From positions 62,728,311 through 62,792,310 of the forward strand of contig NC_057718.1 of assembly GCF_004010195.1 (NCBI RefSeq): a stretch of 64,000 bases of DNA, read 5' to 3'. Origin of the DNA: Chiloscyllium plagiosum (lineage: Eukaryota). A program made the position numbers and the translations under genes. Shown piece after piece: positions 6,408 through 63,500 of the stretch; the first letter of the stretch is position 1, and every line of letters begins with the position of its first letter. Below the pieces are notes generated by a model. The model saw nothing but the letters and a program-made list of their open reading frames with translations, made no database searches and was not told the origin of the DNA.

Positions 6408-7563
6408 CATCGATGACTGTATCGGCGCTGCCTCGTGCTCCCACGAGGAAGTTGAACAGTTCATCCACTTTACCAACACCTTCCACCCCGACCTCAAATT
6501 CACCTGGACCGTCTCAGACTCCTCCCTCCCTTTCCTAGACCTTTCCATTTCTATCTCGGGCGACCGAATCAACACGGACATTTACTATAAACCGACCAAC
6601 TCCCACAGCTACCTAGACTACACCTCCTCCCACCCTGCCCCCTGTAAAAACGCCATCCCATATTCCCAATTCCTTCATCTCCGCCGCATCTGCTCCCAGG
6701 AGGACCAGTTCCAAAACCGTACAACCCAGATGCCTCCTTCTTCAAGGACCGCAATTTCCNNNNNNNNNNNNNNNNNNNNNNNNNNNNNNNNNNNNNNNNN
6801 NNNNNNNNNNNNNNNNNNNNNNNNNNNNNNNNNNNNNNNNNNNNNNNNNNNNNNNNNNNNNNNNNNNNNNNNNNNNNNNNNNNNNNNNNNNNNNNNNNNN
6901 NNNNNNNNNNNNNNNNNNNNNNNNNNNNNNNNNNNNNNNNNNNNNNNNNNNNNNNNNNNNNNNNNNNNNNNNNNNNNNNNNNNNNNNNNNNNNNNNNNNN
7001 NNNNNNNNNNNNNNNNNNNNNNNNNNNNNNNNNNNNNNNNNNNNNNNNNNNNNNNNNNNNNNNNNNNNNNNNNNNNNNNNNNNNNNNNNNNNNNNNNNNN
7101 NNNNNNNNNNNNNNNNNNNNNNNNNNNNNNNNNNNNNNNNNNNNNNNNNNNNNNNNNNNNNNNNNNNNNNNNNNNNNNNNTGGAGGAAGAGTGCCTCATC
7201 TTCCGCCTAGGAACCCTCCAACCACAAGGGATGAACTCAGATTTCTCCAGTTTCGTCATTTCCTCTCCCCCCATCTTGTCTCAGTCAAATCCCTCGGACT
7301 CAGCACCACCTTCCTAACCTGCAGTCTTCTTCCTGGCCTCTCCCCCCCACCCCCACTCCGGCCTATCACCCTCACCTTGACCTCCTTCCACCTATCGCAT
7401 TTCCAACGCCCCTCCCCCAAGTCCCTCCTCCCTACCTTTTATCTTAGCCTGCTGGGCACACTTTCCTCATTTCTGAAGAACGGCTTATGCCCGAAACGTC
7501 GATTCTCCTGCTCCTTGGATGCTGCCTGACCTGCTGTGTTTTTCCAGCGACACATTTTCAGCT
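6408..7563 (+). mobile_element. Penelope-like element family A, 5'-truncated (RT C-terminus, pLTR); spans an N gap
   Basis: IDDCIG (YIDD motif), LPFLDL, TDIYYKPT..SYLDYTSSHP, EEECLIFRLGTLQPQGMN; pLTR with hammerhead motif. Confidence 0.85.
6760..7180. other. Assembly gap (421 N)
   Basis: Run of n. Confidence 1.
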
Positions 7564-7589
7564 TTCAGCACTCATGTCAAGTAGCTCAT

Positions 7590-9620
7590 CATGATTGCTC
7601 TGCCACTCTGTGATATTATGGCTAATCTGATAATCCATAATTCCATTTTTCTGCCTTATTGCCATAACTGTAAATTCACTTAATCATTAGAAATTTATCT
7701 CCTGCAGCCTTGAATAAACTTACTGGCCCAGCCTCAACAGCTCTCTGCAGTAAAGAATTTCACAATTACCACTCTCAGACAAAAAAGAAATCTCTGCCTC
7801 TCTGTCTTACATGGATAACTTCCAATTCTGGGTTTATGCCCTCTGGTCCTACACTCTCCCAAGGCGAAGCAACCTCTCCAAATCTACACATTCAAGCCGA
7901 GAATTTTGTTTGTTTCAATAAGGTCTCCCCTCATGCTTCTAAACTCCTGTGTGTACAAACTCAACCTCTTCTCAAAGACAATCCCTTGATATGAAGGTCA
8001 AACGAGTGAACCTTTTCTGGACTGTCTCCAATCTATCCTTGGATAAAGAGCCAAAACTGTGCACAATATCCCAACTGTGGTCTGGTAAGTGTCTTGTGTA
8101 GTTTTAGCAAGACATCCCTATTTCATACATCATTCCTAAAAGCCAACACATCCATTTGCTTTCCCTATCACCCACTGAATATGGATCCCAGATTTTTATG
8201 ACTCATGCACCAGGACTCCAAATCCCTGTGGTGCAACATGCTGTAGCATTTCCCTATTTAAATATTATTTAGCTCTTCTTCTGACCAAAATACATTACTC
8301 AAATTTTCCCACATTACATCCCATCTCCAAGTTTAACCTGTCTTTATTCTTTTGCAGACTCTGTGTCATCTCATGACTTGCTTTTCCAACTATTTTTGTG
8401 TCATCTGCAATCTTGGAGATAGTACTGCCATCATCCAAGTCATTAATATATAAATACCTGTGGCCTCAATGATCCTTGCAGCACTCCACTAGTTACAGGT
8501 CGGTATACTGAAAATGCTCCACTTACCACAACTCTGTCTCCTATTAGCCAATCCTCTATCCATGCTAATTTCCGACCCATAAAATTATGGGCTCTTATTG
8601 GAGCCCTATGTGTGGGAACCTAATCAAATGCCTTTTAGAAATCCAAATATATTGTAGCTACATTTGTAGGTTCCCCTTTATCTACGTTGCTAGTTACCTC
8701 CTCAAAGAACTGTAATAAATTTATCAGACATGACTTCCCCTTCATGAAGCCATGCTGACTCCATTTGTGTTTCTAAATGCTCTTCTAGTACATCCTTTAT
8801 ATCAGACTCTAGAATTTTCCTAATGACGGGATGTTAAGTTAACCAGCCTGTATTTACATTTTTTTTTGTCTCCTTCCTTCTTTGATTAAATGTGTTACAT
8901 AGGTAGTTTTCTGATCCTCGGCAACTTTTCTAGAATGTTAAGGATTCTTGGAAGATTACTACCAGTGCATCCACTATATCTGCAGCTACTTCATTTAAAA
9001 TCTTGGAATGCAATCCATCATATTTAGCAGTATTATTGGCCATTAGACCTCTAGCTTCCTTTGCACTATATTTATTTCCCCCCTCCCAATCTCCTTAGTC
9101 ACTTAATATTTTCATAATGCTATTAGTAACCTCTACCGTGGAGACTTAGGTAAACTCCTCTACCTGGCTCCCCTTTAATATTTTCCCAGCCTCGTTCTCC
9201 AAGGGGCCTATGTTCACTGTTGCCTCTCTCTTCTTTTTCATACATTTAAAGGTGTTCTTACTGTTTGCTTTCACAAGTACTTGCTAGTTTAACCACCTAG
9301 TTTTCTTTCTTCCTGTTTATGATATTTCTGGTAATCTTTTATTGGCTTTTTAAACTTTCCCAACCCACTGATTTATCACTAATCTTTGCCACAATATAGA
9401 TTTCTTTCAATTTGACACTGTCCTCAACTTCCCTGGTTACCCATGGGCTGTTTATATTCTTCCTGGAATCCTTCTTTCTCATTGAGAGATAACTTTGATT
9501 TTTTTTTACAAAATTTCTGCCATTTATCAACTGTCTTTTCTGTTAAACTCCTTTCGCAATCCACTCTCACCAACTCTGCCCTCACTCCCAAGTAATTTCC
9601 TTTATTTAAGTTTAACACCG
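7590..9620 (-). mobile_element. CR1 LINE ORF2 fragment, decayed
   Basis: [11 protein letters not shown], DFxKAFD, GVxQGS and FADD remnants on minus strand. Confidence 0.8.
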
Positions 9621-9769
9621 TTCTTTCAGATCACTCCCATGTAATTGTTAATTTATTTAAGTTTAACATGGTTCTTTTATACTGTTCACCAGTTCTATCT
9701 GTTTGTCTGTTTTCAATTCTACCAATGCTCGCAAATATAATAAAAAAAACTTATCCACTCATGACCTCA

Positions 9770-9918
9770 CTAACATTTGTGGAATATAGCGTGTATATAA
9801 ACTGGCTTCTGTGTTTCCTATTATATAGGAGTGACTACACCTCTGAAGTACATCATTGGCTGTAAAGTACTTTTGGACCGTATGAGATCTTAAAAGCACT
9901 ATATAAAATTACGTTCTG
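9770..9918 (+). mobile_element. Deu-SINE (SacSINE1-like) 3' tail fragment
   Basis: gtgactacacctctgaagtacatcattggctgtaaagtacttttgg...cactatataaa resembles the tail at 21110-21200 (reverse). Confidence 0.5.
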
Positions 9919-10539
9919 CTTCCTTCCTGAGAGAAGCTGGATGGCTGACATCTCATTTTTGTTGCTCAGAAAATGTCCTTTAAAAGGACTTTAAGGGGCA
10001 TGGGGCAAGCAAAAGAATAGCTCAGGACCAGATGGCACACGTGGACAGAAATACTATTGCATTTTTTCCTGTAATGACTACGTAGCTGAGTAAAAACATT
10101 GCTACAATTCTATGAATATATTCGAAAAACTAGTTTAGTTGTGGACTTAATCCTATTCTTTCACCGTCTATGTAGTAAGCAATGTTCTCTCGAAAGCTAT
10201 GCAGCTGCTCCAAGTGCACATCAGGTAACTAGCATGCAGTACTGACTTCTAATTCTGGAAGTTGATGCCACATACAGACATCGGGGGCCCACACAGGTAG
10301 AATTAATGATAATGTTGGTAATAAGAGAAGCCTACAGAGTTGCCTTCATAGAGCCATAATTCAGCTTTGAAATTTCAGAAGTATACTTCCTTGTTTCCTG
10401 CTACCTACTTCACTCTAAACCTGGAGTTGTGACCAGAATATTTTTAGACATTTTATGATTGAAATTACAGATAAAAATGGTTCCTGAGCAGCAAGCACAC
10501 TAAAATTCTGCGAAACATTAGCCCTCCAGCCTTTCCATC

Positions 10540-10845
10540 ACAGCATAGTGGCTCAATGGTTAGCACTGCTGCCTCACAGCACTAAGGGTCCATGTTCAAT
10601 AGCAACAGTGAAGTTTGTCCATTCTCCCTACGAGTGTGGGGGTTTCCTCCGGGTGTACCAGTTTCCTCCCAAAGATGGGAGGATTGGCCATACTAAATTG
10701 CCCATAGTGCCCAACGATGTCTAGGTGAGGTGAGTTAGTCATGGGAAATGCAGGATTATAGGGAATACGTTTGGGGAGGGGGGTTGTTCTTTGGAGGATC
10801 GGTGTGGACTCAATGGGCCAAATGACCTGCTTCTGCACTATAGAG
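10540..10845 (+). mobile_element. HE1-type SINE
   Basis: gtggctcaatggttagcactgctgcctcacagc head; CR1-like 3' tail. Confidence 0.8.
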
Positions 10846-10865
10846 TTGCTCTGCAGGGTGGGAGC

Positions 10866-11810
10866 CTACCCCCTGTAAAAACACCATCCCATATTCCCAA
10901 TTCCTTCGCCTCCGCCGCATCTGCTCTTAGGAGGACCAATTCCAATACCGAACAACCCAGATGGCCTCCTTCCTCAAAGACCGCAATTTCCCCTCAGACG
11001 TGATTGACAATGCTGTCCACCGCATCTCCTCCACTTCCCGCTCCTCCGCCCTTGAATCCCGCATCTCCGATCGCCACCAGGACAGAACCCCACTGGTCCT
11101 CACCTACCACCCCACCAACCTCCAGATACATCGTGTCATCCTTTGTCATTTCCGTCACCTCCAAACAGACCCCACCACGAAGGATATATTTCCCTCCCCT
11201 CCCCTATCAGCGTTCCGGAAAGACCACTCCCTCCGTGACTCCCTCGTCAGGTCCACACNNNNNNNNNNNNNNNNNNNNNNNNNNNNNNNNNNNNNNNNNN
11301 NNNNNNNNNNNNNNNNNNNNNNNNNNNNNNNNNNNNNNNNNNNNNNNNNNNNNNNNNNNNNNNNCCTCCTCCATCGCCAGACCATGGCAACACGACACCT
11401 GGAGGAAGAGCGCCTCATCTTCCGCCTAGGAACCCTCCAACCACAAGGGATGAATGCAGATTTCTCCAGCTTCCTCATTTCCCCTCTCCCCACCTTATCT
11501 CAGTCTCAACCCTCGGACTCAGCACCGCCTTCTTGACCTGCAATCTTCTTCCCGACCTCTCCGCCCCCACCTGCCTATCACCCTCACCTTAACCTCCTTC
11601 CACCTATAGCATTCCCAATGCCCCTCCCCCAAGTCCCTCCTCCCTACCTTTTATCTAAGCCTGCTTGGCACACCTGCCTCATTCCTGAAGAAGGGCTTAT
11701 GCCCGAAACGTAGATTCTCCTGCTCCTTGGATGCTGCCTGACCTGCTGTGCTTTTCCAGCAACACATTTTTCAGCTCTGATCTCCAGCATCTTCAGTCCT
11801 CACTTTCTCC
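10866..11810 (+). mobile_element. Penelope-like element family A fragment with pLTR and tail; N gap 11259-11364
   Basis: High similarity to 6640-7563; RTPLVLTYHP, PPLSAFRK..SLRDSLV motifs. Confidence 0.85.
11685..11712 (+). ncRNA. Minimal hammerhead ribozyme motif (family A)
   Basis: CTGAAGA-a-GGGC ttat GCCC-GAAAC-GTA. Confidence 0.65.
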
Positions 11811-12558
11811 CAAAGAATGGAAGAGCCTTGGGAAACGTTGATGGGCAGAGAGATCTGGGAGTGCAGGTCCATTGTACCCTGAAGGTTGCTGCACAGGTGG
11901 GTAGAGTGGTCAAGAAGGCATAGAGTATGCTTGCCTTCATCGGACGGGGTATTGAGTATAAGAGCTGGCAGATCATGTTAAAATTGTACAAGACATTGGT
12001 TTGGCTGCATTTAGAATACTGTGTACAGTTCTGGTCGCCACATTACCAAAAGGATGTGGATGCTTTGGAGAGGGTACAGAGAAGGTTTACGAGAATGTTG
12101 CCTAGTATGGAAGGTGCTAGCTATGAAGAAGGTTGAGTAGGTTAGGTTTGTTTTCATTAGAAAAAAGGAGATTGAGGGGGGGGACCTGATTGAGGTTTAC
12201 AAAATCATGAAGGGTATAGACAGGGTGGACAAAGACAAGCTTTCTCCCAGGGTGAAGGATTCAATAACGAGCAGTCACGTTTTCAAGGTGAGAGGTGGAA
12301 AGTTTAAGGGGGATACACGTGGCAAGTACTTCTGACAGAGAGTGGTGGGTGTTTGGAATGCGTTGCCAAAAGAGGTGGTAGAGGCAGGCATGGTAGATTC
12401 ATTGAAGATGCGTCTGGACAGATGCATGAGTAGATGGGGAGCAGAGGGATATAGATGCTTAGGAATTGACCAACAGGTTTAGATGGTACATTTGGATCAG
12501 CTCAGGCTTGGAGGGCCGAAGGGCCTGTTCCTGGGCTATAAATTTTCTTTGTTCTTTG
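11811..12558 (+). mobile_element. CR1 LINE 3' fragment
   Basis: ORF 11927..12136 LYKTLVxxHLEYCVQFWSPHY..LERVQRRFTRM; gggccgaagggcctg tail. Confidence 0.9.
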
Positions 12559-12583
12559 TAAACCTCTATCTTTTTCTTCCTTC

Positions 12584-12678
12584 CTTCCTGAAGAAGGGCT
12601 CATGCCCGAAACGTCGATTCTCCTGCTCCGTGGATGCTGCCTGACCTGCTGCGCTTTTCCAGCAACACATTTTCAGCT
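12584..12678 (+). mobile_element. Solo family A PLE pseudo-LTR segment
   Basis: Near-identical to 7470-7563. Confidence 0.85.
12588..12615 (+). ncRNA. Minimal hammerhead ribozyme motif (family A)
   Basis: CTGAAGA-a-GGGC tcat GCCC-GAAAC-GTC. Confidence 0.65.
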
Positions 12679-12889
12679 TCCTTCAACTAGTACCTACCTA
12701 GTTGATACTGACTGTATTATATTGCCACAACATATTCAATTCCCTTACAAAAGTATCTTTTAGCCAAATATAATTCATAAAGTTTTAGATCAAAATAGGA
12801 CTGAATTCAATCTATCAAAGCATGCGTCCATTGGTCAAGTAACTCATTAAAAATTAGCAACAGGTGGAGAGAGCTGTTCATAACTGATT

Positions 12890-14180
12890 GGAGCAGAAGT
12901 ACACAGGAGCAGCAGGTCATTCAGCCCCTTGAGCTTGCTTCACCAATCCAGATCATAACTGAACATCTACCTCAATGCCATAGTCACATCCCCTTCGCTA
13001 TCTCCATATTCCTTGAAGTCATTAGAAACTAGAAATTCATCACTCCCTTCCTTAATGTCTGAGCTTTCAAAATCCTCTGGAGTAGAAAATTTCAAAGATC
13101 TGCCAACCTCTGAGTGAAGAAGTTCTATTCATTTCAGTCTTATATGTTTTTTTTTAAATTCAGTCTCTCCAATTCCAGACTCTGCAGCCAATGGATACAT
13201 TCTTTCGGTAATTGTTGTCTGTCCCTTTAAGAATTTTGTAGGATTCTATGAGAATGTCTTTCACTATTCTAAACTTCAGAGAAAACAAGTCTAGTCTCCT
13301 CATCGCTCCTCGCAAGGCAGTCCCACCATCCTAGAAATCAATCTGATCGACCTCTGCTGAACTCCATCTATGGTAAATATATCCTTCCTTCAGTAAGGAG
13401 GGCAAGAACTGAACACATTACTCCAGGTGTGGTCTCACAATGTCCTTTCCAACTGAAGCAAGACTTATTTGCTGCTGTTTAGGAACCTCTTGTGATAAAG
13501 ACTGACACATAATTTCTCTCCAAATGGTTTGTTGCCCCTGTATGCTCATTTTCAGTAACTTATGAACAAGGACACCTAGGTCCTTTTGGACATCAATTCT
13601 GTTCAATCTTTTACCATTTACGAAGTAGAGTACAACAGCAAGCAGGTTATGCTAAATTTGGATAATACATTAGCTAGACCTCAGCTACAGAAGTGTGTGC
13701 AGTTCTGGGTGCTTCAGAAGGCATGTGAATACATTGGAGAGAAGATAAAGAGATTTACCAGGGTGGTTCCACAGATAAAACTTCTGATGTGAAGGTACAC
13801 CGCAGAAGTTTTCCTTGGAAATCTGATTGTAGTTTTCAAAATTATGAGGTGCCTGGACAGAGTAGAGAGGGAGTAATCGTTCCCACTTATGAAAGGATTG
13901 AGAATGAAAGGACAGAGATTTAAAGGAATTTGTTAACAAAGTGAATGCAGTCCACGAAAAAAAGCGGTTTCACGCAGGGAGTAGTTAACATTTTGAATGC
14001 ACTGCCTAGAAATGTGGTGGAGGCAGATTCGATAGTCAAGAGACCATTAGATAATTCTGTACATTTGTTTCTATTCAAATAATTATCAGGTAAAGGTATG
14101 AGAAAGTTACCAAGTCATAATACTCACAGAGCCATTGCAGACATGATGGCCCAAATGTTGTCTGCTGCCATAACAGTTCT
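12890..14180. mobile_element. Two CR1 3' fragments joined head-to-head (minus about 12890-13620, plus about 13625-14180)
   Basis: ORF 13418..13606(-) VRPHLE; ORF 13586..13792(+) RPQLQKCVQFW. Confidence 0.7.
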
Positions 14181-14347
14181 GAAAATTCATGGATAACTTA
14201 TACTTTGATATTCCCATTACGTTCTAAATTCACCCTCTCTAATCAATCTTGGGTAGAATCAGCCGTCTAACAACTTCAGCATCTTATTTGACCCCATTCT
14301 GAGGTACTATCAACCATTACCATAAAGATCACTTATTTCTGCCTCCA

Positions 14348-17300
14348 TAGAACATTGAACAGTACAGGCTCTTTGGCCTTTGATGTTGCGTCGATCTGTG
14401 GAACCAATGTGAAGCCCATCTATCCTACACTCTTTCATCGTCATCCAGACATTTATCCAATGATCACTTAAATGCCCTTAAAGTTGGCGAGTCTACTACT
14501 GTTGCAGGCAGTGCGTTCCACGCCCCTACTACTCTCCGAGTAAAGAAACTATCTCTGACATCTGTCCTATATCTATCACCCACCAATTTAAAACAGTGTC
14601 CTCTCGTGTTAGCCATCACCATCCAAGGAAAACAGGCTCTCACTGTCCACCCTATTGAACCCTCTGAGTAACTAATATGTCTCAATGGAGTCACCTCTCA
14701 ACCTTCTCTCTAGTGAAAACAGCCTCAAGTCAGAGTCATAGAGATGTAGAGCATGGAAACAGACTCTTCGGTCCAACTCATCCATGCCGACCAAATATCC
14801 CAACCCAATCTAGTCCCACCTGCCAGCACTCGACCCATATCCCTCCTAACGCTTCCTATTCAGATACCATCCAGATGTCTTTTAAATGTTGCAATTGTAC
14901 TAGCCTCCATCACTTCCTCTGGCAGCCCATTCCACACATGCATCATCCTTTGCATGAAAAAGATGCTCTTTAGGTCTCTTTTATATTTTTTTCTCTCTAC
15001 CCTAAACCTAAGCCCTCTAGTTCTGGACTTCTCCACTCCAGGGGAAAGACTTTGTCTATTTACTCTATCCATTATCCCTCATGACTTTATAAACCTCTAT
15101 AAGGTCACCCCTCAGCCTCCGATGCTCCAGGGAAAATAGCCCTAACCTATTTAACCTCTCCCTATAGCTCAAATCCTCCAACCCTGGCAACATCTTGTAA
15201 ATCTTTTCTGAACCCTTTCAAGATTCACAACATCTTTCCGATTGGAAACAGACCAGAATTGCATGCAATATTCCAACAGTGGCCTAACCAATATCATGTA
15301 CATTCGCAACATGACCTCCCAACTCCTGTACTCAACACTGACCAATAAAAGCAAGCATACCAAGTGCCTTCTTCACTATCCTATCTACCTGCGACTCCAC
15401 TTTCAAGGAGCTATGAACCTGCACTGTAAAGTCTCTTTGCTCAGCAACACTCCCTAGGACCTTACCATTAAATATACAAGTCCTGCTAAGATTTGCCTCC
15501 CCAAAATGCAGCACCTCGCATTTATCTAAGTTAAACTCCATCTGCCACTTCTCAGCCCATTGGCTCATCTGATTCAAGATGTGACCTCAGCGTTTCCTCA
15601 TAAGACCTTCCCTCCATACCAGGCAACATCCTAGTAAACCTCCTCTGAATCCTTTCCAAAGCTTCAACATCCTTACTATAATACGGTGACCAGAACTGTA
15701 CACAATACTCTAAGTGCGGCCACACCATAGTTTTGTACAACTGCTGCATAACCTCGTCGTTTCGAAACTCAATCCCTCTACCAATAAAAGTTAACTCACC
15801 ATATGCCTTCTTAACAAACCTATCAACCTGGGTGGCAACTTTCAGGGATCTACATACATGGACACAGATCTCTCTGCTCATCTACGCTACCAAGAATCTT
15901 ACCATTAGCCCAGTACTCTTGATTCTTGTTGCTCTTTCAAAAGTGAATCACCTCATGCTTTACCACGTTAAATTCCATTTGCCACATCTCAACCTAGCTC
16001 TGCAGCTTATCAATGTCCTTCTGTAATCTGCAACATTCTTCAGCACTATCCACAATTCCACTAGCTTTAGTGTCATGCGCAAACTTAATAACACATCCTT
16101 CATGCCCTCATACAGGTCATTTATAAAAATGACAAACAGCAGTGGCTGCAAAAAGATCCTTGTGGTATGGCACTAGTAACTGAACTCCAGGATGAACATT
16201 TCCCATCAACCACCACCCCTAGTCTTCTTTCAGCTAGACAATCTCTGAGCCAAACTGCTAAATCGCCCTCAATCCCATGCTTCCATATTTTGTGCAATAG
16301 CATACCGTGGGGAACCTTAGCAAATGCCTGACTGAAATCCATATACATCACATCAACCGCTTTATCCTCATCCACCTGTTTGGTCACCTTCTCAAAGATC
16401 TCAATAAGGTTTGTGAGGCATGACCTACCCTTCACAAACCTGTTGACTATACCTAATCAACCTATTCCTCTCTAGATGATTATAAATCCTATCTCTTATA
16501 ACCTTTTCCAACACTTTACCCACAACAGAAGTAAGGCTCACTGGTCTATAATTACCAGTATTGTCTCTACTCTCCTTCGTGAACAAGGGAATAACATTTG
16601 CTCTCCTCCAGTCTTCTAGCACTATTGCTGTAGACAATGACGACATAAAGATCGAAGTCAAAGGCTCTGCAATGTCTTCCCTGGTTTCCCAGAGAATCTT
16701 AGGATAAATCCCATCTGGCCCAGGGGCTTATCTATTTTCACAGGGAAAAGACTTTGTCTATTTATCCTATCCATGCTCCTCATAATTTTGTAAACCTCTA
16801 TAAGGTCACCCCTCAGCCTCCGACGCTCCAGGGAAAACAGTCCCAGCCTGTTCAGCCTCTCACTATAGCTCAAATCCTCCAACCCTGGCAACATCCTTGT
16901 AAATCTTTTCTGAACCCTTTCAAGTTTCACAACATCTTTCCGATAGGAAGGAGACCAGAATTGCACGCAATATTCCAACAATGGCCTCCCAACTCCTGTA
17001 CTCAATACTCTGGCCAATAAAGGAAAGCATACCAAACGCCTTCTTCACTATCCTATCTACCTGCGACTCCACTTTCAAGGGGTTATGAACCTGCACTCCA
17101 AGGTCTCTTTGTTCAGCATCACTCCCTAGGACCTTACCATTAAGTGTAAGTCCTGCTAAGATTTGCTTTCCCAAAATGGGACACCTCGCATTTATTTGAA
17201 TTAAACTCCATCTGCCACTTCTCAGCCCGTTGGCCCATCTGGTCCAGATCCTGTTGTATTCTGAGGTAACCCTCTTTGCTGCCAACTACACCTCCAATTT

Positions 17301-48852: not shown

Positions 48853-48976
48853 CTGGAAAAGCAGAATTCACTGAAATCAGCATACTCTTTATTTTCTCCC
48901 CCCCCCGGTGCCACTCACTACAATAGTCCAGACATGTTACACTGGTGCAGACCAATTTTGATCCAGTAGTACTTAC

Positions 48977-51660: not shown

Positions 51661-51739
51661 TTAAACATTATTTCCAAACTTTTCCAGTCACATTTTTCCA
51701 ATAAGTTATAGTCAACAAGTCAGAAAAATATCTCAATAC

Positions 51740-51835
51740 CTCCAAAAGTTCTGGTGAAACATCAAAGCTGTACTCCTTCCCATTTTCTTCCTCTGTGTCT
51801 ACACGCTTGTAAAACAGCATGTATGCACTGTGTGT
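51740..51835 (-). CDS. USP34: USP34 exon 5 (THSAYMLFYKRVDTEEENGKEYSFDVSPELLE)
   Basis: AYMLFY end-of-USP-domain motif; ttttag / gtattg; 96 nt. Confidence 0.95.
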
Positions 51836-52749
51836 CTAAAATCAAAATATTGCATCAGCAGAGTAAAAACGTACACATCTTTTCCTTTGGTAATGTATAT
51901 AACTTAGATTATTTTGTACATGGGGTTCAGTTTGAAAATTTGCAGTATCTGTTCTTAGATGAATAGGAGTATCTGCAATTTTAATGTGCCACAATAACTG
52001 CTATTTTATGGTTTCAATCAGTAATTGCACAAACTTACCATCAAAAGGTCCTACAAGTTAATCGAAAATGGTTTATGAAATTTTTTCAGGCACCAGTTTC
52101 TCCATCAGTAATTAAACTTTTTATGATTCAACAGTAAGTGATTAAACCAAAATAAAATTTGCTGAGGTGCAATCAGTTCTACTTATGGGATTTCTTTCTT
52201 AATATTTTTACTTGAAGTGTTTACTTGATGAAATTTATGATGCTTTTAATAAAAAGAATAAGTTAAACTTGTGAGAGAAAATGATTAAAGATGTTCTATC
52301 ACAACTACCTGTTGCAGATTTTATTTAAAGCGTATATTAAACTGGGGGGGGGGGGGGGGAAGTATGAGGAAAGAAAAAGCACCAAGATCTTTAATGTGAC
52401 ATCAATGTTCAGGAAGAGCCCTGGTTGAATTCTGAAGCCAAATACTTACGCACTTAAAGTTTATCGACAGAAAAGATCAATGGTAATAAGTGAGTCTGCA
52501 ACTCTAATTCCTATCAACTTTGAGCCAAGAGAGAAAGAGAAAAGTGAACCATCCTTTCTCATTTATCTTTTAAATAAATTGAAAGCTAAGGAAAATACTT
52601 AGAGGCAATCAAGGCTCCAGGCTTTTAAAATCACTTGAGAAACTAGTTTAGGCTGGGAGTGGCACAGTTGTGGACTGGAGGTCAAGGGTGTGGTGAATGA
52701 CACCAAAGCAATATGGGCAGAAGGTGTGGGGTTGAGTGGGTTGTGGGTT

Positions 52750-53450
52750 CAAATCAGAATTGAATTGAATTTATTGTCACTTGTACCAAGGCACAGTGAA
52801 AAGTTTTGTCTTGTGAGCAAAACAGGCAAATCACATAGTTAAATAGTATAGATAAGTAAATAATAGGTAAACAGTAGCAAAAACAAAAACACAGGTACAG
52901 GCGAACGTTAAGTGTTTGAGAGTCCATTCAGTATTCTAACAACAGTAGGGTAGAAACTGTTCCAAAATGGCTGATGCATGTGTTCAGGCTTCTGTATCTT
53001 CTCCCCGATGGCAGAGGTTGTAGAAAAACATTGCCAGGGTGGAATGGATCTTTCAGAACGCTGACTGCCTTTCCTTGACAGTGGGCCTTTTGGATGGATT
53101 TTGTGATTGTCTGGGCTGAGTTCACCACTCTGCATAACTATCTCCGATCTTGAATGGTACAGTTCCATACCTGGTAGTGATACATCCAGACAAAATGCTC
53201 TCGATGGTGCACCTATAAAAGTTGACAAAGGTATTTGTCGTCATGCCAAGTTTCCTCAGCTGCCTGAGGAAGAAGAGACGTTGTTGGGCGTTCGTAACCA
53301 GTGCAGCCACATGAAGAGTCCAAGAAAGCTTGTTGTGATGACCACTCCCAGGAGCTTGACACTTTCCACTCGTTCCACCACCACTAATGTGTAGGGGGGC
53401 ATGAGTAACATCCCGCCGAAAGTCAATAATTAGTTCCTTAGTTTTTCCCA
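52750..53450 (-). mobile_element. Rex1/Babar-like LINE 3' fragment
   Basis: KTKELIIDFRR...LSWTLHV...AQQRLFFLRQLRK...FYRCTIESILSGCIT; (aattc)n tail. Confidence 0.8.
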
Positions 53451-54295
53451 AGGAGACTTAGGAATGAGGAGATGGTTGTTAGCTGTAAAGCTTGCGGATA
53501 ATGGGAACGAAGTAGGTGAGTGAAGAGATTGCAAGAAAGAAAAAGTCAACTGCTAAAGCCAAGGTAGTTACTCTCTCCCACCACCTAAAAAAGGTATGAG
53601 AGTGTAAGGGAAAAAAAAAATTGAAAACAGGTAGCAGGACCATTAAAGAGAAAATGGATAGGGCCCAAAGGAAAATTAAAATAGCAGTAGTGTATAAACT
53701 AGAGGCAAGTAAGAGTTATAAAACTTCCTGCCTTGGTATGCTGTGTCACAGGAAATCAACTAGTTAAGTAGTGCAGAATTAAATTTGGGTGGAACCAACC
53801 TCCACTCTGGTCTAGAATAAATCTCAGTAATCATTGAAAGTAAAATTTTATCCAAGTCAGTTTATTTTGCCTTCAAATATAATATTTGGCATTACTCCTC
53901 AGTTTTCCTCACTATCTTCTTAACGTGGCAAATGATTCCAAAGAGTTAAGAACCAATACCTCATTCAATAGGAGAGCACAGACAAATATTCTAATCAACA
54001 AGTGGAATAGCTGCGCATGGCTTTATCATCAGAGACAAGGTAAATTTCATGCTGCGCATGGCTTTATCATCAAATCAAACATCTTCAGCTCTCAAACAAT
54101 TCAAATTGATTCATAATTTGTAATTACTGCCCACACCACATTGTAAATCAACATTAGTCTGATGGAGACCTGTATATTAAACCATGGCTATATTGCTAGT
54201 CCAAAGAACAGCATGTGTATAAATCTGCCCATCATGAATTCTCTGACTTTGTAACTAACAGAAATCCTCAACAAAATGGAAACAACTTCATTTGT

Positions 54296-54870
54296 CAGAG
54301 TCAAACTACATGGAAACAGAGCCTTCAGTTCAATTTGTCCACACCAACCATGTTCCCAAACTAAACTTGATCCACCCAAACCTTTCCTATTCATGAACTT
54401 ATCCAAATTTCTTTTAAACATTGTAACTGTTCATGCACACACCGCTTCCTCTATTTTTATATCTCAAACCCTCCATTCCTGGCAACATCCTGGTAAATCT
54501 TTCCTGAACTTCCTCAAGTTTAATAATATCCTTCCGATAACAGGGTGACCAGATTGGACACAGTACTGTAGAAGATGCCTCACCAATGTCTTGTACAACC
54601 CCAACATGACATCCCAACTCCTATACTCAAAAGGTATGAGCAATGAAGGCAAGTGTACTAAGTGTCTTTTTAACCACCCTGTCTACCTATGATGCAAATT
54701 TCAAAGAATTATGTGCCTGAATCCATAGGGGGCTCTGTTCTACTGCAACACTACCCAGGGCCTTAACCATTAATTGTATATGTCCGATCACTTTTGTACT
54801 ACCAAAATGTAATACTTCACATTTAACCAATTTAAACTCCATCTGCCTCTCCTCAGCCCACTGACCCTAT
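54296..54870 (-). mobile_element. CR1 LINE 3' fragment with internal deletions
   Basis: ORFs 54414..54617 and 54464..54652. Confidence 0.85.
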
Positions 54871-55769
54871 TCTGAGAGAGCTAGGTCTTAATCTCATGCA
54901 TATCTGCGCAACACAGCACTTATCGCTTGCTTGATTCATTGACACAGATTGTTATAAAGTTCTAGCAAGTGAAACATACATCTGTGGGTTGAAAACTTGA
55001 AACTGATCACTAAATCAACTATAGCATGTTGTGGCTGAAAGACAGGAGCAAGTTAGGTGAGGATATGCAAAAAAAAAGATTTTGCGACCAAAAAGTTCAG
55101 AAATCTTATACACCAAGATGACCTGTATGTTGCAAGATATATCATTTCTACAATGTATCAAAATAAATCAGTGATTAACATGCTTGATGTAGGAAAAATA
55201 AATTCAGGTCCATTATCTCCACATGCAAAGATCCCAATCTGAGCCATGCAGCCGACTAGTAGCAAACTAGTTTTAGCTCCCTACAAAATCTGAGCTCTGG
55301 TCACCTCCTTTGCAGGTCTTTTTTGAAACATTATTGGTTGCCTTTCATCCAGTAGCTAACTGGTGGAGTCTCAGCTATTTGACCAATTAATAAAATCCTC
55401 TAGGGGTCATGATTTACTCCTCAACCATTTGCTCAAAGAGGTTTGATCTTCTACTGGATAATGAACCTTGTTTCACCGTTCATTCCTTTCCTTCACAATT
55501 CTCTTCCTCCCTCTCTCTAGCCTACCTTGCTTCTACAGCGTTCTCCAAGTGCATGTCTCTTGCACCCTGCTTAATCTCAGTCCTTAATCTTCACTCTACT
55601 TTACAATGCCAATCAATATCAAGTAACAGAATAAAAGATCATTAGCAATAAAAACAACATCCCATTAGCACAACTGCAATTATTCTTTTCAGGATAGTTC
55701 CAAAACAGATAGTTTTTAAAGGTTTTGGAGATTTGGGTGGGAGAGAAGAGAAAAAGTTTTTAAAAAAAA

Positions 55770-57450
55770 AGTACAGCACAGAAGGAGGCCATTCAGCGCA
55801 CTGTGCCCCATTGTCTGAATAAACTGGCCATCCATTCTAATTCAATTTTCTAACATCACAACCTTGAAGATTACAGCACCTCATGTGCAGATCCAGGTTC
55901 CTTTCAAATTAATTAAGGGTTTTGCCTCAACCATCAAACTTGACAGTGAATCCAAGGCATCCATCACCCTCCGGATAAATGTTTTCCCTACATGCTCTCT
56001 AATTCTTCTACCAATCACATTTAAATCTGTGGCCCCCTGGTAACTGACCTCTCCAGTAGGGACAAGTCTTTCATGTCCACTTAATCCAAGCCCTTCATTA
56101 CGTTATGCACCTCAATTAAGTCACACTTCAGTCTCTTCCATTTCAAAGAAACCAATCATAGCCTATCCAATGTTTCTTCATAACTGCAATTTTCAAGTCC
56201 TGGCAAATTCTTGTATATCTCATCTGTAAACTCTAAAGCATTATGTGCTTCCTATAACTTGGTGAGCAGAAGAGGGTACAAAACCACAGCTGTGGTCAAA
56301 CTAGCACTTTATATAGTTCCAGCATTATAATCCCTGCTTTTGCATTGAGTATCTCATCCAATGAAGGAACGCAACTCAAACATACTTTGCTACCTTATTG
56401 AGCTGTTCTCCTACCTTCATGGGCCTGCAGATACACATTTGAAGGTCTCTTACTTTCTCTACCCCTCTCAATATTGTACAGTTTATTGAGTATCTGCTGC
56501 TTTGTTCACTCTCCCCTTATGGATAACCTAGTACTTTACAGGATTGAATTCTATTTACCATTTATCCACCCATTCCATCAAACTACTGATGTAATCCTGG
56601 AGCCAACAACCATCTTCTTCACTATCAACTACCCAGAAAAATTTTGTGTTGCCTGCAAATTTCCCAATTATGCTTACCACATACAAGTCCAAATCATTCA
56701 TATATACAACGAACAACGAAGGATCCAAAATACAGCTCTGTAGAACACCACTAGAAAACATTTTCCATTCACAGAAACGTCCGTTAACAATTATCCTGTG
56801 CTTCTGGTCACCGAGCAAACATTTGGTCAAATTGTAACATTTCCTGTACTCCATGGGCTTTAATTTTTCTTGACCAGTTTGCCATGTGGAACATTGTAAA
56901 TGTCTTATTAAAATCTGATTAGAATATAGGGTACATCCAGTGCACTACCTACATCAATCTCCTTATTATTTCCTCAAACATTCAACTGAATAACACATGA
57001 CTTTCACTTCACAAAACCATGCTGACTATTCCTGATCAATCTGTGCCTAAGTAATAGATAATTCTGTGTCTCAGCAATGATTCTGGTCATTTGCCCACCA
57101 CTGAGGTCAGACTGACCAGTCTCTCTTTCACACCCTTTTTGAATAATAGCACAACATTTACAAATCTCCAATCCTTTAATATCTATAGTGAGGAATGCAA
57201 AATGATCCTCAGAGCATCCACTATTCCTCCCTGACTTCCTTTAGCAGCTTAGGATACAATTTCTCTGACCTTGGTGATTTATCTACCTTCAATGAGGTCA
57301 GTATCTCCAGTATTTCCTTCATTATGCTTATTTTATCTAATATTTCACACTCCTCTTTAACTAGAATGACTGCATCATCCAACCCCTTTGTGAAGACAGA
57401 GGCAAAGCACTCATCAAGAAGCCTGCCCACATCTGCATCCATGCACAGGT
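55770..57450 (-). mobile_element. CR1 LINE ORF2 fragment, decayed
   Basis: SGVLQSCILDPSLFVVYMNDL; FASVFTK...LKVDKSP...LYPKLLKEVREE. Confidence 0.85.
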
Positions 57451-57544
57451 TGTGAAGTACTAAAGATTGCAAAGTACTAGTTAAGGCTCCTCATTCTAAA
57501 AAATAATCGAAAAGAAATCTTAATTATTCTCCAAAAATATTTAC

Positions 57545-57598
57545 CTTTTCAAAGGAAAAATCCATGAACTTGTCTGTGACAGAATCATATGTTTTGGT
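57545..57598 (-). CDS. USP34: USP34 exon 4 (TKTYDSVTDKFMDFSFEK)
   Basis: Peptide matches USP34; ttttag / gtaaat; 54 nt. Confidence 0.95.
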
Positions 57599-58761
57599 CT
57601 AAAAAAAATTAAAAAAAAATTAAAGTGTTGCATAATTCAAAGTCCTGGAAGTTGACAAGAAATATAAGCACAGCCCTGAGATTTTAAATGTTTGTTGCAC
57701 AGAAACATGGTAACTGGATATTAAATAGAAGGTAGCAAACAAGCTTGATTGCATCAAATAATGGGAGAATGTACAAAGTACAGGTGATGTTGGAGTGAGG
57801 TCAGGAAGTGGGTTAAATAACAAAGGCACTGATTAATGAACATTACTCTAAAAGGTCATTTGTACAGAATGATGCAAAATGAAAATACTTGTGGACAGGA
57901 TTACAAGGCAACCAAAAGGATCAAAATTATTTTGTACATACATTGAAAGCAACAAACATAGTAAAGATCTTTTATACTAATAACATCATCCAATATTACT
58001 GTTACAAATCAGTTTTGGCATTGATATTTTTAAAGTCGACATTTGGGAAATTTCTATCAAAAGAGAATGCACATGAAAGATAATCTAGTTCCACAAAATA
58101 CAGGCAATAAAAAGGACTCTTTTCTGTCAATTCTTCTCCCTTTCTCATTTGAAGGGATTGACTCCATACATCCAGGAATCAGACATTTTCAAACATTTCT
58201 GTAAAGTCTGTGTAATGAGAGTTTGCAGACTAATTGTTTGGGGCTTCAGGGTGTTGGAGCAATTGATCTTAATCCTATCTTCCCGCAGGAATTTCTCAAT
58301 TGACCTCAGTGGAGATCACTGGATATCAATCAGCAGCAAGGAACCATGTCAGCTAGGTCCCTGCCTTGCTCCACAGCACTGATACTAAATGCAGTACATC
58401 TTTTCCATTCTGGATTAAAGAAACTAATTCTTGGGAGACCAGAAGTTTTTTTTTATATTTTAGCTGTGGCACATATTATTTTTATCAATGGTGCTGTCAA
58501 TCCAGTTTCAAAAATAAACAGATCTCCTTAGTCAAGTGGCAAAGCCCTAAAATTACCAGAGGTCTTAAAACTGGACATTAAAAGTATACAGTAATTTTCA
58601 TTAAAATTTACCCTAAATAAATGAACAGAGGAATTAGATTGTCAAAATACAATGATTGTTCTTAAATGGATAGCAAAGTAAATGCCAGAAAAGAGGTAAT
58701 ACTGCCACTTACATCTACTGTTCCTGTGAGAAACAATCAGAAAAAGAAAACTAGAACTTAC

Positions 58762-58840
58762 TGTCATTTCTCCACCAAAGCATTCAGAGGCAAGTTGAGT
58801 AGAATCAAATGGTTTTACCTCAGCATCATTAAATAGATAC
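58762..58840 (-). CDS. USP34: USP34 exon 3 (YLFNDAEVKPFDSTQLASECFGGEMT)
   Basis: WYLFND catalytic-box motif across the junction; ctttag / gtaagt; 79 nt. Confidence 0.96.
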
Positions 58841-59059
58841 CTAAAGAGGGGTTAAAAACCACAGCTATTAAAACAAATGGTATTAGCTCTTTTACCCAGT
58901 CTTATGTAAAAAGTTTTACATGGGATACAATTTCACTTAATTGGCATTAAGCCAATAACGAAGATACTGTTAATTTCTACTTTCAGAGAAAGGAAATATG
59001 AGGTGTTAAAGGAGCCCATACGACTAACTTGAAAATTGACACTATAAACATCTGCTTAC

Positions 59060-59210
59060 CATTTATTGTTTTTATAAGCATGAAGATTCACAATATCTCT
59101 GATAAAACTATAATAATGCCCTCCATCTGCTGTCCCTGTGTGCACAGTCACTCCAATCAAATCATACTCAAAGCTTTCACTTTGTTTAACTTCACCATTC
59201 TCTTTAAAAC
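59060..59210 (-). CDS. USP34: USP34 exon 2 (FKENGEVKQSESFEYDLIGVTVHTGTADGGHYYSFIRDIVNLHAYKNNK(W)); contains His box
   Basis: USP His-box motif GGHYYSFI; ttcag / gtaagc; 151 nt; phases fit neighbours. Confidence 0.96.
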
Positions 59211-59899
59211 CTGAAATGAAATAAAAACAAAGTTCACTTCAGCATGACATTGCCAGTTAAGTCTGTTTAGAAAAGAAGGCTCGTGTTGTAACTCATCCAA
59301 CATTGGAAGGTTTTTAATCAATGAGCACGTAGCAGCATCAAACTGATTGAAATTCAACTGCAGGACATAAGCATGAACTGCTTCAACTTATTCTGTCACA
59401 GTAGTGGATATAGCAATCTCAATCTCTATAAAGCTAAACGTCATGACATTTGAGTTATGACATTCGGTGAAGTGCACTTTCTGCACAGCTCTAGAATACA
59501 ATGTTTTACATAATTAACCAAAAGTGCATGCATTAACAAGGATTAGAGGAGAACATTGAACAGATTTACATCTAGCTTCCTTTATCCTTTTAAAGACAAT
59601 TCAGAATTAATCTCTTTGCAGTCACTCACAAAAAAGTATAGTTAGAACACTAAAATTTTGTATCAACAGTCAATTTCAGTATATACAAAACAATTAGAAG
59701 AAAATCTCAATTAGCATGTAGGACTGAAACCCTACGAAACTGATTTACATCTTGGAAACTGCCATAACAACTAGCATATTAGTTACCAAAAAAAATCAGG
59801 GAAATATGAATGACATTTCATCAGACAACTGAGTTTTTAACATTATTCTCTATTTGTAGTGAAGCAGAATTATTAAATTAAATAAAACTATTACAGTAC

Positions 59900-60072
59900 C
59901 ATCTACACGGTCAGTTTTTCCCATAAGATAATCTTCAGTGTAAGGAGTCATGTCAAGTCTCAGAGGAAAAGAGAAGTGGGTGTTGACTTTTTCTTTCATC
60001 ATTGTAACCATATTGAAAGTGTAACGCATGGTATTGAAACTCAAGATTCGAGGTAATTTCTTGAAACAAGCC
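59900..60072 (-). CDS. USP34: USP34 coding exon 1 of 21 in window ((R)ACFKKLPRILSFNTMRY...DYLMGKTDRVD(G)); USP catalytic domain
   Basis: Translation matches recalled vertebrate USP34; acceptor tcacag, donor gtactg; 173 nt. Confidence 0.95.
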
Positions 60073-60569
60073 CTGTGACAGATGCAAAAAGAAACAATCA
60101 CAGTGGGCAAAAATGTACATATTTATTCATTCCAAGTATCCAGCGGAATTAAATCCATTGGTAGTGCATGCCTGTGTTATATTTTCTTTTAAGAAAAATT
60201 CTGTTTGATTTAAACGCCAATACAGTTAATATCTCATGTAAAGACATCCCTTCCAGATATACATGTTTTCCTCTTTCGGACAGATAACAAAGTTGCAGAT
60301 GGAATGCCATGGTAGCAGTGTTGAGTGGTGGAAAATACTCTTACAGTAGCATCACTGGAATCATTGCATAATATGTAAAACAACATTTAAAACAGGGTTT
60401 TTTCAGTGATCAGCAAATTTTATTACTCAACAACTAATATCAATCATGCTGTTGAATGTTCAAGAGTCCCATCATGCTTATTAATTTAAAAATGCAATTA
60501 ATTGGCTATGGTACAAAGCCTAAATATTGCTAGAAAGAGACAAAGTCAAAGCATTTCAGTTTGCACTTA

Positions 60570-63500
60570 ACCATAAGATATGGGAGCAGAATGAGGCAAT
60601 TCGACCCATCGAATTGGCTCCATCATTTGATCATGACTGAAATGTTTCTCAATTCCATTCTCCTGCCTTCTCCCCCTTGATTCTTGATTATTAAGAGATT
60701 CAAGGGTCATCTGTCTCGGTGTTAAATAACTCAATGACTTGGCCTCTACAGCCTTCTGTAGCAATAAGTTCCACAGCTCCATCTCCCTCATCAATTCCTC
60801 ATCAATTCTAAAGGAGGCCGTGCCCTTCTAGTCTGTTTTATGGTGGAAGCAGCTTCTCTACATCCACTTGATCCAGTCTTTGTAGAATTCTGTAAGTTTC
60901 AATGAGATTCCTCCTTATCCTTCTAAACATTGTCAAATACAGATCCAGAATCCTCAACCACCCCTCAAATGACAAGCCCTTGGTTCATGGGATCAATCTT
61001 GTAAAATACCTCTGAATCCCCTCATTGACCAGCACATCTTTCCTTTGATGCAGGGCCCAAACTGCTCACAGCATTTCAAAATGTGGTCTGACCAGAGCCT
61101 TGCATAGCCTGAGCAGAGCATCTCTGCTCTTGTATTCTAGCCCTCTTGAAATGAATGCTAACATTGTATTTGCATTCCGAAATGCCAACTGAACCTGCAT
61201 GTCAACCTTAAGGGAATGCTGATCTCGGACTCCCAGGCCTCTTTGTGCCTCACATTTCCAAAGCCTTTCCTCATTTAAAAAATGTACACCTCATTTGCTA
61301 CTCTAGTCTTCCTACCAAAGTGCATAACCTCATACCTGGCCACATTGCACTATATGTCACTTACTTGTCCAGCCTGTCCAAGTCCTTCTGCAGCCTCCCT
61401 GCTTCCTCAACAGTACCTGTCCCTCCATCTACCTTTATCATCTGCAAACTTAGCAACAATGCCCTCAGTTTCTTCATGCACACTCTGTCTTCTGTCAGGT
61501 AGCCAATCTTCTATCCAATCTAACATAATGGGTTGGATCTTATTTAGCAGCCTCCTGTGCAGCACCTTGTCAAAGGCCTTCTGGAAGTCCAAATAGATCA
61601 CGTTCACTGGCTCTACTTTGTCTAACATACTCATGACCTCCTCAAAGAATTTAAACAGATTTGTCAGGCATCACCTCTTCTTGATGAAGCCATGCTGACT
61701 CAGCCCTATTTTACCATGCACTTCCAAGCAATCTGCAATCTCATCCTTAATAATGGACTCCAAAATCTTACCAATGACTGAGGTCAGGCTAACCAGCCTT
61801 TAGTTTCCTGCCCATCTCCCTGCATAAACATACCATAAGAAACAGTAACAGGAGTAAGCCATTTGGCACCTCAAGCCTGCTCTGATATACAATAGGATCA
61901 TAGCTGGTCTGATATTTCTCATACCCACTTTCTTGCATAACCCTTTATTTTTCTGTTCTGATCAAGAATTTGTCCATCTCAGTCTTAAATGTACAAAGAG
62001 ACACTATTCCCACAGCTCTCTGTGGCAATAGGTTCCAAAGATTCTCAATCCTCAGAAAAAATTCTCTCTCATCAGTCTTAAATTGGTGCCTCTTTATTCG
62101 GAGGCCATGCCCTCTGGTCCTAGACTCTCCTATGAGGGGGAACATCCCATCAGCATTTACCCTCTCAAGTCCCTTGAGAATCCTATACGGAGATCACCTT
62201 CCACCTTCTAAACTCCAATGAGTAAAATCACAATCGGTTTAGCCTTTGCTCATTAGGCAATCCTTTCATTCCAGGGATCATCCTAGTGAACCTTCGCTGA
62301 ACTGCCTCCAACATAATAATCTTTCCTTAATTAAGAGGACCAAAACTGCTTTCCATAAATGGTCTCACCAGCATCTTGTACAGTTGCAGAATGACTTTCC
62401 TACTTTTGCACTACAACCCCTTTGAAATAAAAGTCAGCATTCCATCAGCCTTCTTGATTACTTGCTGCATCTATAGGCTAATACCACAAAGTCCTTTTTG
62501 TGTTGCAGCATTCTGCAGTTTTTTCCATTTAAATAATATTCTGTTCTTTCATTGTCCCTTCCAAAATGTAGTGGAGGCACTTGACGAAGGAGCAGTGCTC
62601 TGAAAGCTAGTGTTTTCAAATAAACCTGTTGGACTATAAACTGGTGGCGTGTGATTTTTGACCTCTTTCAAAATGAACAACTTCATATTTTGCCATCACC
62701 CACCTTTCTGTCCACTTACTTGACCTATGAATCTCTCTCTGCAAAATGTTTCTATCCCTCTCACAACCTGTCTTTCCATCTATTTTTGTATCGTCTGCAC
62801 ATCTGGCCACAGTACATTCACTTCCTTTCCCAAAGTCATCAACATATATTGTAACCAGTTATGGTCCCACCACAGATACCTATGGAATCCCACTGTTCAT
62901 GGTTCACTAACCTGAAAAAGAATGCTTTATCTCCACTCACTGTCTCCTGCCATCAGCCACTTCCTTATTTATGCCAATATACTAATGCCAAGGGCTCTTA
63001 TCTTAGAACTGACTGTTTCAGAGGTACCTTGTTGAATCCACTCTCAAAGTCCAAATACAATATATCTATTGGTTCCCCGCTATCCGCCCTAGTTGAGACT
63101 TATTCAAGAAACTCCAAAATATTTGCCAGACACAATTTCTCTTTAATGAAGCCATGCTGACTCTGCTTAATTAGATTATGATTTTCCAAATATGCTGTTA
63201 CTTCTTTAATAATTAATTCCAATAGTTTTCCAACAATGTTAGGATAAGCAGCCTATAGTTACCCATTTTTTTGCCAACTCCCTTTTTGAATATGGGTATC
63301 ACATTAGCAGTTGTCTAAACCCTTGGCACTTTACCAGAATGCAAGGATTTTTGGAAAATCACAACCAATGCATTACTATCTCTGTGGATCCTCCTTTTAG
63401 GAATCCTAGGACGCAAGCCATCTGGGCCAGGAGACTTATTGCCTTGAGCCCCATTAGTTTGTCTAATACTTTTAGTGGTGGTGATGGTACTTAATTCCTA

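Follow-up and report, generated by a model that had tools for sequence, protein, structure and literature searches.

Along a 64,000-nt stretch of Chiloscyllium plagiosum DNA (the window; all in-window counts and scans refer to its full length), 15 sites carry a hammerhead ribozyme-like motif or a recognisable decayed copy of one, which bears out all 15 positions listed in an earlier note made from the sequence. Very probably, these motifs are minimal type I hammerheads that lie near the 3′ ends of 5′-truncated insertions of Penelope-like elements (PLEs) in introns of USP34, the gene of ubiquitin carboxyl-terminal hydrolase 34, and that are likely to be passive, decaying passengers and not working host ribozymes. 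Eleven named copies belong to families A, B and C; the remaining ones form a decayed group D (Table 1). The numbering of positions and the catalytic role of G12 are as given in PMC4209133 and PMC6155905. For minus-strand sites the coordinates listed before mark roughly the low end (H17); C3 is located at 19762, 43570, 22255, 24891, 51203 and 51538, and these copies are named here by C3 and marked (-). The host gene was recognised by a 250-codon frame (20264-21016, minus strand) that is 93-95% identical to USP34 of birds and frogs (vertebrate proteins). The motifs had been placed "within one gene", and 13 of the 15 do lie between mapped USP34 exons, but the sites at 278 and 62581 are outside the mapped exons; not every part of the homologous protein could be located in the window, and these two sites are presumably intronic.

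The loose core CTGAnGA..GAAA taken alone is weak evidence, as it was found at 17 sites versus a mean of 6.2 and a maximum of 16 in 200 dinucleotide shuffles. A structured descriptor comprising the core, a stem II of at least 3 bp, paired 15.2/16.2 and UH matched 6 sites in the window versus 0.045 by chance (maximum 1). All 11 named copies have an extra base between A9 and G10.1, G10.1-C11.1 is a G-C pair in 9/11, and the palindrome at 15.2-16.2, which is CG in A and B and GC in C, is Watson-Crick in 9/11; there is no loop 3. Stem I is 2 bp long in A and 3 bp long in both B and C. Stem II had been described as wholly different among the families; the stems do differ, but G10.1-C11.1 is common to all three, and A and C both have a stem II of 4 bp. 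When nine paired positions were compared across the 11 copies, 79 of 99 cells were Watson-Crick versus 48.7 (maximum 65) when the columns were shuffled 20,000 times, a comparison that takes no account of how the copies are related. At the level of families, 24 of 27 pairs were Watson-Crick (exact permutation p=1.1e-4; stem I 8/9, p=0.009; stem II 10/12, p=0.037), with compensatory changes at 10.2, 10.3, 10.4, 15.2/16.2, 2.1, 2.2 and 2.3, in agreement with the view that at least three sequence-distinct families exist whose stems stay paired.

As a non-shark control only, public metagenome contigs were searched with a pattern written from families A and C, which gave 118 loci (15/64 parts). A palindromic 15.2-16.2 was found in 79 of 88 distinct matches. 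Position 1 of stem I, which is outside the search pattern, was Watson-Crick in 61 of these 79 (34.8 expected) and in 3 of the 9 non-palindromic matches. Apart from two motif hits of 27-35 nt, no metagenome locus matched the shark flanks, and the 2 matches in viral contigs were both unrelated to the shark copies. A covariance model made from 39 of these non-shark motifs, hand-picked from 71 palindromic matches, had as its top 7 hits in the window seven of the sites listed before (E 1e-11 to 0.014), with 43.5 bits for 11685 and 31.5 bits for 7473. A further hit at 46404-46444 (-) (E=0.054) was rejected, as it is without GAAA-NNUH. The Rfam hammerhead scan proposed in the earlier note gave no hammerhead hit in the window; indeed, there were 0 Rfam matches of any kind at gathering threshold. 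At E<=10, region 7000-26000 had 8 below-threshold matches, none to a hammerhead family; the best of them were microRNA models on the inverted repeat 22254-22320 and were rejected, this repeat being a PLE inversion. Monomer folds were no stabler than shuffles (z 0.44 to -1.28), and the helix III self-duplex amounted to just -1.7 to -2.5 kcal/mol. In six metagenome contigs (L017, L020, L055, L065, L108 and L115) minimal hammerheads stand back to back on opposite strands, a layout like that of the inverted pairs in the window.

A full core had been claimed for all A, B and C sites. This was too strong: the catalytic core is complete in 7/11 named copies (7473, 11685, 12588, 19762(-), 19439, 22319 and 25400), at least one of them in every family, but it is broken in 43570(-) (C3U, G12A), 22255(-) (G12A), 24891(-) (G12A, triplet lost) and 62581 (C3U). 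Three core-complete copies have stem lesions, namely C:C at 10.1-11.1 in 7473, A:C in stem II of 19762(-) and the lack of stem I in 25400, so that a core or stem lesion is present in 7/11, and only 4/11 (11685, 12588, 19439 and 22319) retain the core, stem II and the palindrome together with 2 bp or more of stem I.

Both the A and the B motifs sit downstream of remnants of open reading frames (ORFs) for reverse transcriptase (RT) and GIY-YIG endonuclease, that is, in the terminal region of a PLE; anatomy and PLE proteins thus agree with the earlier assignment as PLE minimal type I hammerheads for at least A and B. Remnants of the RT and/or the endonuclease C-terminus precede the A copies 7473, 11685 and 43570(-). 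The remnant at 6409-7287 is 90% identical to P0113 and 84% to P0114 (PF00078 precomputed), and the nearest entries for the A-side repeat protein were from the Chiloscyllium punctatum and Hemiscyllium ocellatum set (90%). The A homologues P0117, P0118, P0163 and P0164 have a CX4CxxC linker between RT and GIY-YIG; a CX2-5CxxC linker is described as a Neptune feature by Craig et al. 2021 (PMC8557442). Judged by this linker motif of the homologues, and not by a tree, the family A carrier is a putative Neptune-type PLE. In the family A ORF remnants, the linker/endonuclease region is covered by runs of N at 6760-7180 and 11259-11364. Two of the four young A copies, 12588 (+) and 19762(-), begin within 0-2 bases of C3, straight after the target-site duplication; such starts could mean that reverse transcription often halts just past stem II (n=2). 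The flank of 19762(-) at 19763-19775 matches the element's own upstream sequence over ~9-10 nt in opposite orientation, which is either a tiny 5′ inversion or chance microhomology.

The family B endonuclease shares 87-93% identity with proteins of bamboo sharks (entries of Chiloscyllium punctatum and Hemiscyllium ocellatum). The CX2-5CxxC linker is absent from the B homologues P0097 (89% identical to the endonuclease in the window), P0099, P0103 and P0104; this check was made on homologues, the window copy beginning at the endonuclease. On the basis of the homologues and not of a tree, the family B carrier is classed as a Poseidon-type (Penelope/Poseidon-clade) PLE. Pfam gave no match at E<=0.01 on the PLE fragments of the window, GIY-YIG (E=0.013) being below the cut-off. 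In the homologue P0097 the protein ends inside the hammerhead with its stop in distal stem II/loop II, and in the 19439 copy an ATG in another frame begins at A9; at 19439-19460, the end of the endonuclease ORF and this ATG both lie within the hammerhead. In tandem, the ORF end and a possible next ORF start would overlap inside the B ribozyme motif. Isoforms of MAP3K7, NT5DC1, CUEDC2 and CHID1 from sharks/rays (P0098, P0106, P0109 and P0132) contain PLE protein sequence, by either exonisation or a gene-model artefact.

Table 1. Hammerhead copies, carrier remnants and host gene in the window.
Feature	Position	Strand	Remarks
Family A minimal hammerhead	7473..7500	+	core intact; G10.1->C (C:C mismatch); triplet GUC
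Family A minimal hammerhead	11685..11712	+	core and stems intact; triplet GUA; tail-bearing, extends ~100 nt beyond cut site
Family A minimal hammerhead	12588..12615	+	intact; GUC; insertion ~12588-12676 begins at motif 5′ edge; flanked by 8-bp direct repeat
Family A hammerhead	19735..19762	-	87-bp insertion 19676-19762, 5-bp direct repeat; core intact; stem II A:C; stem I 1 bp
Older family A-like copy	43543..43570	-	core broken (C3U, G12A); preceded by endonuclease remnant 43684-43971 (-)
Family B minimal hammerhead	19439..19472	+	intact; triplet GUU; overlaps last codons of Poseidon-type ORF
Family B hammerhead	22319..22352	+	core and proximal stems intact; distal stem II weakened; GUU
Family B hammerhead	22222..22255	-	broken (G12A); inverted partner of 22319; bears ~36-nt tail
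Family C hammerhead	25400..25428	+	core intact; 10.2 A-U where 62581 has G-C; stem I lost; triplet CUA
Family C copy	24863..24891	-	broken (G12A, triplet lost); inverted partner of 25400; repeat 24815-25000 vs 25300-25476
Family C copy	62581..62609	+	C3U, C11.1U; stem I of 3 bp and AGCU palindrome kept
Decayed group D copy	278..309	+	related to A downstream of motif
Decayed group D copy	37234..37263	+	C11.1U; triplet lost
Decayed group D copy	51174..51203	-	core letters kept; C11.1U; no stem I; followed by inverted end piece 51216-51271 (+)
Decayed group D copy	51505..51538	-	G12 lost
Neptune-type PLE ORF remnant upstream of 7473	6409..7287	+	RT end 6409-6732, N gap 6760-7180, endonuclease C-terminus 7183-7287
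Neptune-type PLE ORF remnant upstream of 11685	10865..11509	+	tblastn; in-frame stop; N gap 11259-11364
Single family B insertion	18798..19512	.	12-bp direct repeat each side; tail-less forward end
Inverted tail-bearing end piece with half hammerhead	18798-18885	-	in 18798-19512 insertion
Inverted endonuclease piece	18853-19050	-	in 18798-19512 insertion
Forward GIY-YIG endonuclease	19036-19452	+	in 18798-19512 insertion, then hammerhead
Single family B insertion	22146..22392	.	two inverted end pieces; tail on inverted one alone; 12-bp direct repeat each side
USP34 (ubiquitin carboxyl-terminal hydrolase 34), mapped coding exon span	4267..60074	-	largest exon ~20348-21001

The insertions are fewer than the 15 motifs, because 22222/22319 and 24865/25400 are inverted pairs that each stem from a single insertion. 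Four insertions lie between target-site duplications of 5-12 bp (12 bp for 22146-22392 and 18798-19512, 8 bp for 12588-12676 and 5 bp for 19676-19762). Counted from the predicted cut, an end without tail comes after 40 nt in B, 59-63 nt in A and ~48-50 nt in C, and a tail-bearing end after 76 nt in B and ~100 nt in A, 36-40 nt further on; every full copy includes sequence from either side of the scissile bond. According to PMC8557442 and PMC4209133, inverted pairs, tails and target-site duplications are usual in Penelope elements. With the endonuclease-containing (EN+) PLEs of PMC8557442 the window shares the C-terminal GIY-YIG, 5′ truncation, an inverted 5′ copy, a tail of 30-40 bp on one end and the CX2-5CxxC linker in A but not in B homologues; it differs in that it contains fragments only. 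The motifs had been located in PLE pseudo-long terminal repeats (pLTRs): A and B are indeed at PLE ends, but the term is a loose one, since 3′ end fragments and no full-length PLE or partial tandem were found in the window.

Group D shares sequence downstream of the motif with A (nhmmer E 1e-7 to 7e-4 in three copies) and, on this evidence, is probably an older group related to A. A weak Neptune-type protein similarity at 56-204 ends ~75-90 nt before the motif at 278, and this copy seems to be without the endonuclease region. Beside the C copies (24700-25600 and 61500-62700), tblastn with 74 fetched PLE-related proteins gave no PLE protein match, and the inverted pair at 24815-25476 is without a clear target-site duplication; the only argument for PLE membership of family C is architecture, i.e. 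the inverted-pair layout. Family C, and perhaps D, might therefore not be the end of an autonomous PLE but a non-autonomous, non-LTR retrozyme-like element that forms small RNA circles and moves with the help of PLEs. Such retrozymes are described for one chondrichthyan genome, where they have type I hammerheads and are argued to derive from PLE pLTRs (bioRxiv 10.64898/2026.07.22.740005). As described there, however, retrozymes are by definition tandem repeats of hammerhead-bearing units, and no tandem array of such units is present in the window (4 short unrelated rows were found); moreover, C has an inverted pair of the PLE type, and its three copies are alike to ~50 nt beyond the cut site. 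We consider a retrozyme-like origin doubtful.

The CpG at C11.1-G12, which includes the catalytic G12, is lost in 8 of the 15 copies, to CA in 43570(-), 22255(-), 24891(-), 278 and 51538(-) and to TG in 62581, 37234 and 51203(-), and the CpG of the palindrome is hit in 43570(-), 51203(-), 278 and 51538(-). The observed/expected ratio of CpG in the window is 0.26. Methylation-driven decay of CpG would explain the loss of the motifs without selection. It is set against the finding that none of the six copies on the sense strand of USP34 but four of the nine antisense copies are fully intact (Fisher p=0.10), which would fit a scenario in which intact copies cut host transcripts as cis or cross-family dimers via the shared ACGU and selection strips them from sense strands. 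In line with this, the ACGU palindrome is common to A and B, the sense copy in 22146-22392 is the broken one, and 11685 and 12588, the sole close same-strand intact pair, are 903 nt apart on the strand antisense to USP34. But the bias is not significant and is weaker still for the core only (2/6 sense versus 6/9 antisense, p=0.31), the lesions are mostly CpG transitions as expected without selection, the ages of the copies differ between the strands, and no read ends were seen at cut sites. The other close pairs are inverted and face opposite ways, which precludes a cis dimer, because a dimer needs two motifs on the same strand. Cleavage of host transcripts with selection in this gene is thus unlikely, and its extension to carpet sharks in general, in which abundant PLE families sharing the ACGU palindrome would give intact cross-family dimers that cut host pre-mRNAs while selection strips sense-strand motifs, is rather less probable still; if true, such losses would show in vivo, and across the whole genome, whether PLE minimal hammerheads cleave at all.

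Sequencing runs were compared with the 1.1-kb stretch 19090-20200 at 85% likeness. In the DNA run X1, 72,496 contigs matched this stretch, and in X13 (organism B) 54,946. The summed depth over the repeats was of the order of 1e6-1e7 versus 6-34 on the distal unique flank, a value that is not a copy number. Families A and B are thus extremely repeated, and the very large hammerhead population postulated before exists as far as these two are concerned. A contig of 5,908 nt from organism B runs from 19670 straight to 19763 and represents the empty site of the A copy at 19735; at least one family A copy was therefore inserted recently. As the first 930 bases of this contig do not match the B element, organism B seems to lack the B insertion, too.

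The RNA run X21 is a single-cell poly(A) library of which ~2% was read, with 3,010 reads placed. These stem from many copies: only 90 of the 3,010 were at least 99% alike, and none fell on the flank 19850-20200. Family B was covered ~7:1 on one strand (199.9 versus 27.8 at the motif) and A ~1.5:1, the excess strand being, provided that the usual library convention applies, the sense strand of the element; 130 reads extend into the tail. There was no pile-up of read starts or ends and the depth was flat across the B cut site (199.9 versus 196.5), although this type of library makes it a weak test. The stem II lesion of 19762(-) at 19752 is private, as the pairing base is found in 895 of 930 RNA reads that stem from other copies, and at 19472 GUC instead of GUU was found in 119 of 219 RNA reads. 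To speak of a ribozyme population, as had been done, is hence right as to the abundance of motifs but overstates function, given the lesions in the named copies and the RNA without ends at cut sites.

These data also bear on the idea that the host has domesticated the copies as intronic ribozymes for cutting or regulating the USP34 pre-mRNA, after the manner of the conserved hammerheads in introns of amniote RECK (a figure legend of PMC6155905 names a RECK hammerhead). Their location between USP34 exons and the six sites on the sense strand of the gene would suit such a role, but no sense-strand copy has both core and stems, all 4 intact copies are antisense, and the best sense copy, 19762(-), has the private mismatch and is missing in organism B, where flanks that differ by just 14 letters in ~600 enclose the empty site. 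In this comparison, 19762(-) is not conserved at the orthologous site, and domestication is very improbable. That the motifs are mere chance matches, as the near-chance frequency of the loose core and the lack of a hammerhead match in Rfam might suggest, is ruled out for practical purposes by the structured descriptor, the covariation and the constant placement beside PLE ORFs.

Several points weigh against the view that the motifs are hammerheads of truncated PLEs decaying without function. The covariation is based on just three families. The seed pattern of the covariance model came from A and C, and the ranking of A and C copies is not fully independent, while the intact B copy 19439 scored E=0.17, below three unrelated sites. 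Both clade labels (Neptune and Poseidon) depend on homologues, in which alone the Neptune linker was seen, because N gaps take up its place in the two long A copies, and no PLE protein similarity was found beside family C. Stem I is 2 bp in A versus 4-5 bp in the minimal hammerheads of S. mansoni (PMC4209133). The strand bias leaves room for selection against cleavage of host RNA, and the RNA comparison covers a small part of one run from a library type that is poor for showing cut ends.

Motifs of this kind are known. Cervera & De la Peña 2014 (PMC4209133) report that they number thousands per genome and fall into several covarying families; most are lone truncated relics, and some form opposite-strand pairs 100-700 bp apart. 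A large and diverse population is therefore no surprise. The shark copies agree with these minimal hammerheads in their type I topology, the extra base between A9 and G10.1, the G10.1-C11.1 pair, the palindromic 15.2-16.2 and the absence of loop 3, as well as in the covarying families, the predominance of single truncated copies and the opposite-strand pairs at 100-700 bp; they differ in the host and in a stem II of 4 bp in A and C versus 7-8 bp in S. mansoni. Single S. mansoni motifs did not cleave and dimers cleaved weakly (PMC4209133). Frangieh et al. 2024 (PMC11167929) found that the hammerhead of the Anolis carolinensis element PAc cleaved only with the element's protein and was not needed for insertion in vitro; the tail is defined by two internal sites at which reverse transcription began. 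Family B resembles PAc in having an ATG where stem II begins, followed after 28 nt by the predicted cut (26 nt in PAc), the AC-rich end region, two end points ~36 nt apart (tail), the lack of RNA read ends at the cut site and a hammerhead that overlaps the ORF end and an ATG in another frame. It differs in that its end points lie ~68/104 nt after the ATG versus initiation at 111-118 in PAc, and that the ATG as ORF start is putative. The families had been called poorly catalogued, which holds in the narrow sense that there is no Rfam hit and that no shark-specific report of PLE hammerheads was found in the literature searches made, but families of this kind are known. No cartilaginous fish was found in the main-text passages of PMC4209133 consulted or by a term search of its supplement; a shark example may be present in its figures. 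The motifs are therefore real and of a known kind, with sharks at most as a new host group.

By analogy, insertion and decay may proceed as follows. On uncleaved RNA, the element protein would begin reverse transcription a short way downstream of the hammerhead, at either of two internal sites (cf. PMC11167929), in the shark elements probably 40-100 nt downstream of the cut site. Even the shortest insertion would thereby copy the ribozyme motif, and this would be the reason for the very high number of motifs. In a tandem precursor, two motifs may pair through their palindromes (ACGU or AGCU), forming a helix III of 4 bp (cf. PMC4209133), and the dimer would cleave slowly after GUC, GUU, GUA or CUA, probably needing the element's protein. 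Self-cleavage of the window motifs, if any, would take place in such tandem precursors. After insertion, the CpG at C11.1-G12 and that of the palindrome would decay by transition and the motif would be inactivated. The findings extend the known Penelope signature to sharks, with most such motifs being relics. PMC4209133, PMC11167929 and PMC8557442 leave in vivo cleavage of minimal PLE hammerheads open, and many dated copies in several families are material with which it can be tested by strand and age.

The window contains further repeats. Decayed RT fragments of the long interspersed nuclear element (LINE) type were found at 11816-12433, 14737-17871, 33920-34730 and elsewhere, with PF00078 at 17140-17499. 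A frame at 53122-53457 (-) matched Pfam ALKBH8_N (PF09004, E 6.6e-11), a domain (DUF1891) that we take to be typical of Rex1/RTE-like LINE ends. A dispersed repeat family of ~300 bp is present at 10545-10853, 27738-28082, 28903-29206, 32617-32943, 39284-39641 and 48244-48601. Finally, 31894-32148 is a near-identical tandem duplicate of 123 bp (97.6%) with a linked inverted copy of 83 bp at 33251-33333 (98.8%), and the two are either a young repeat or an assembly artefact.

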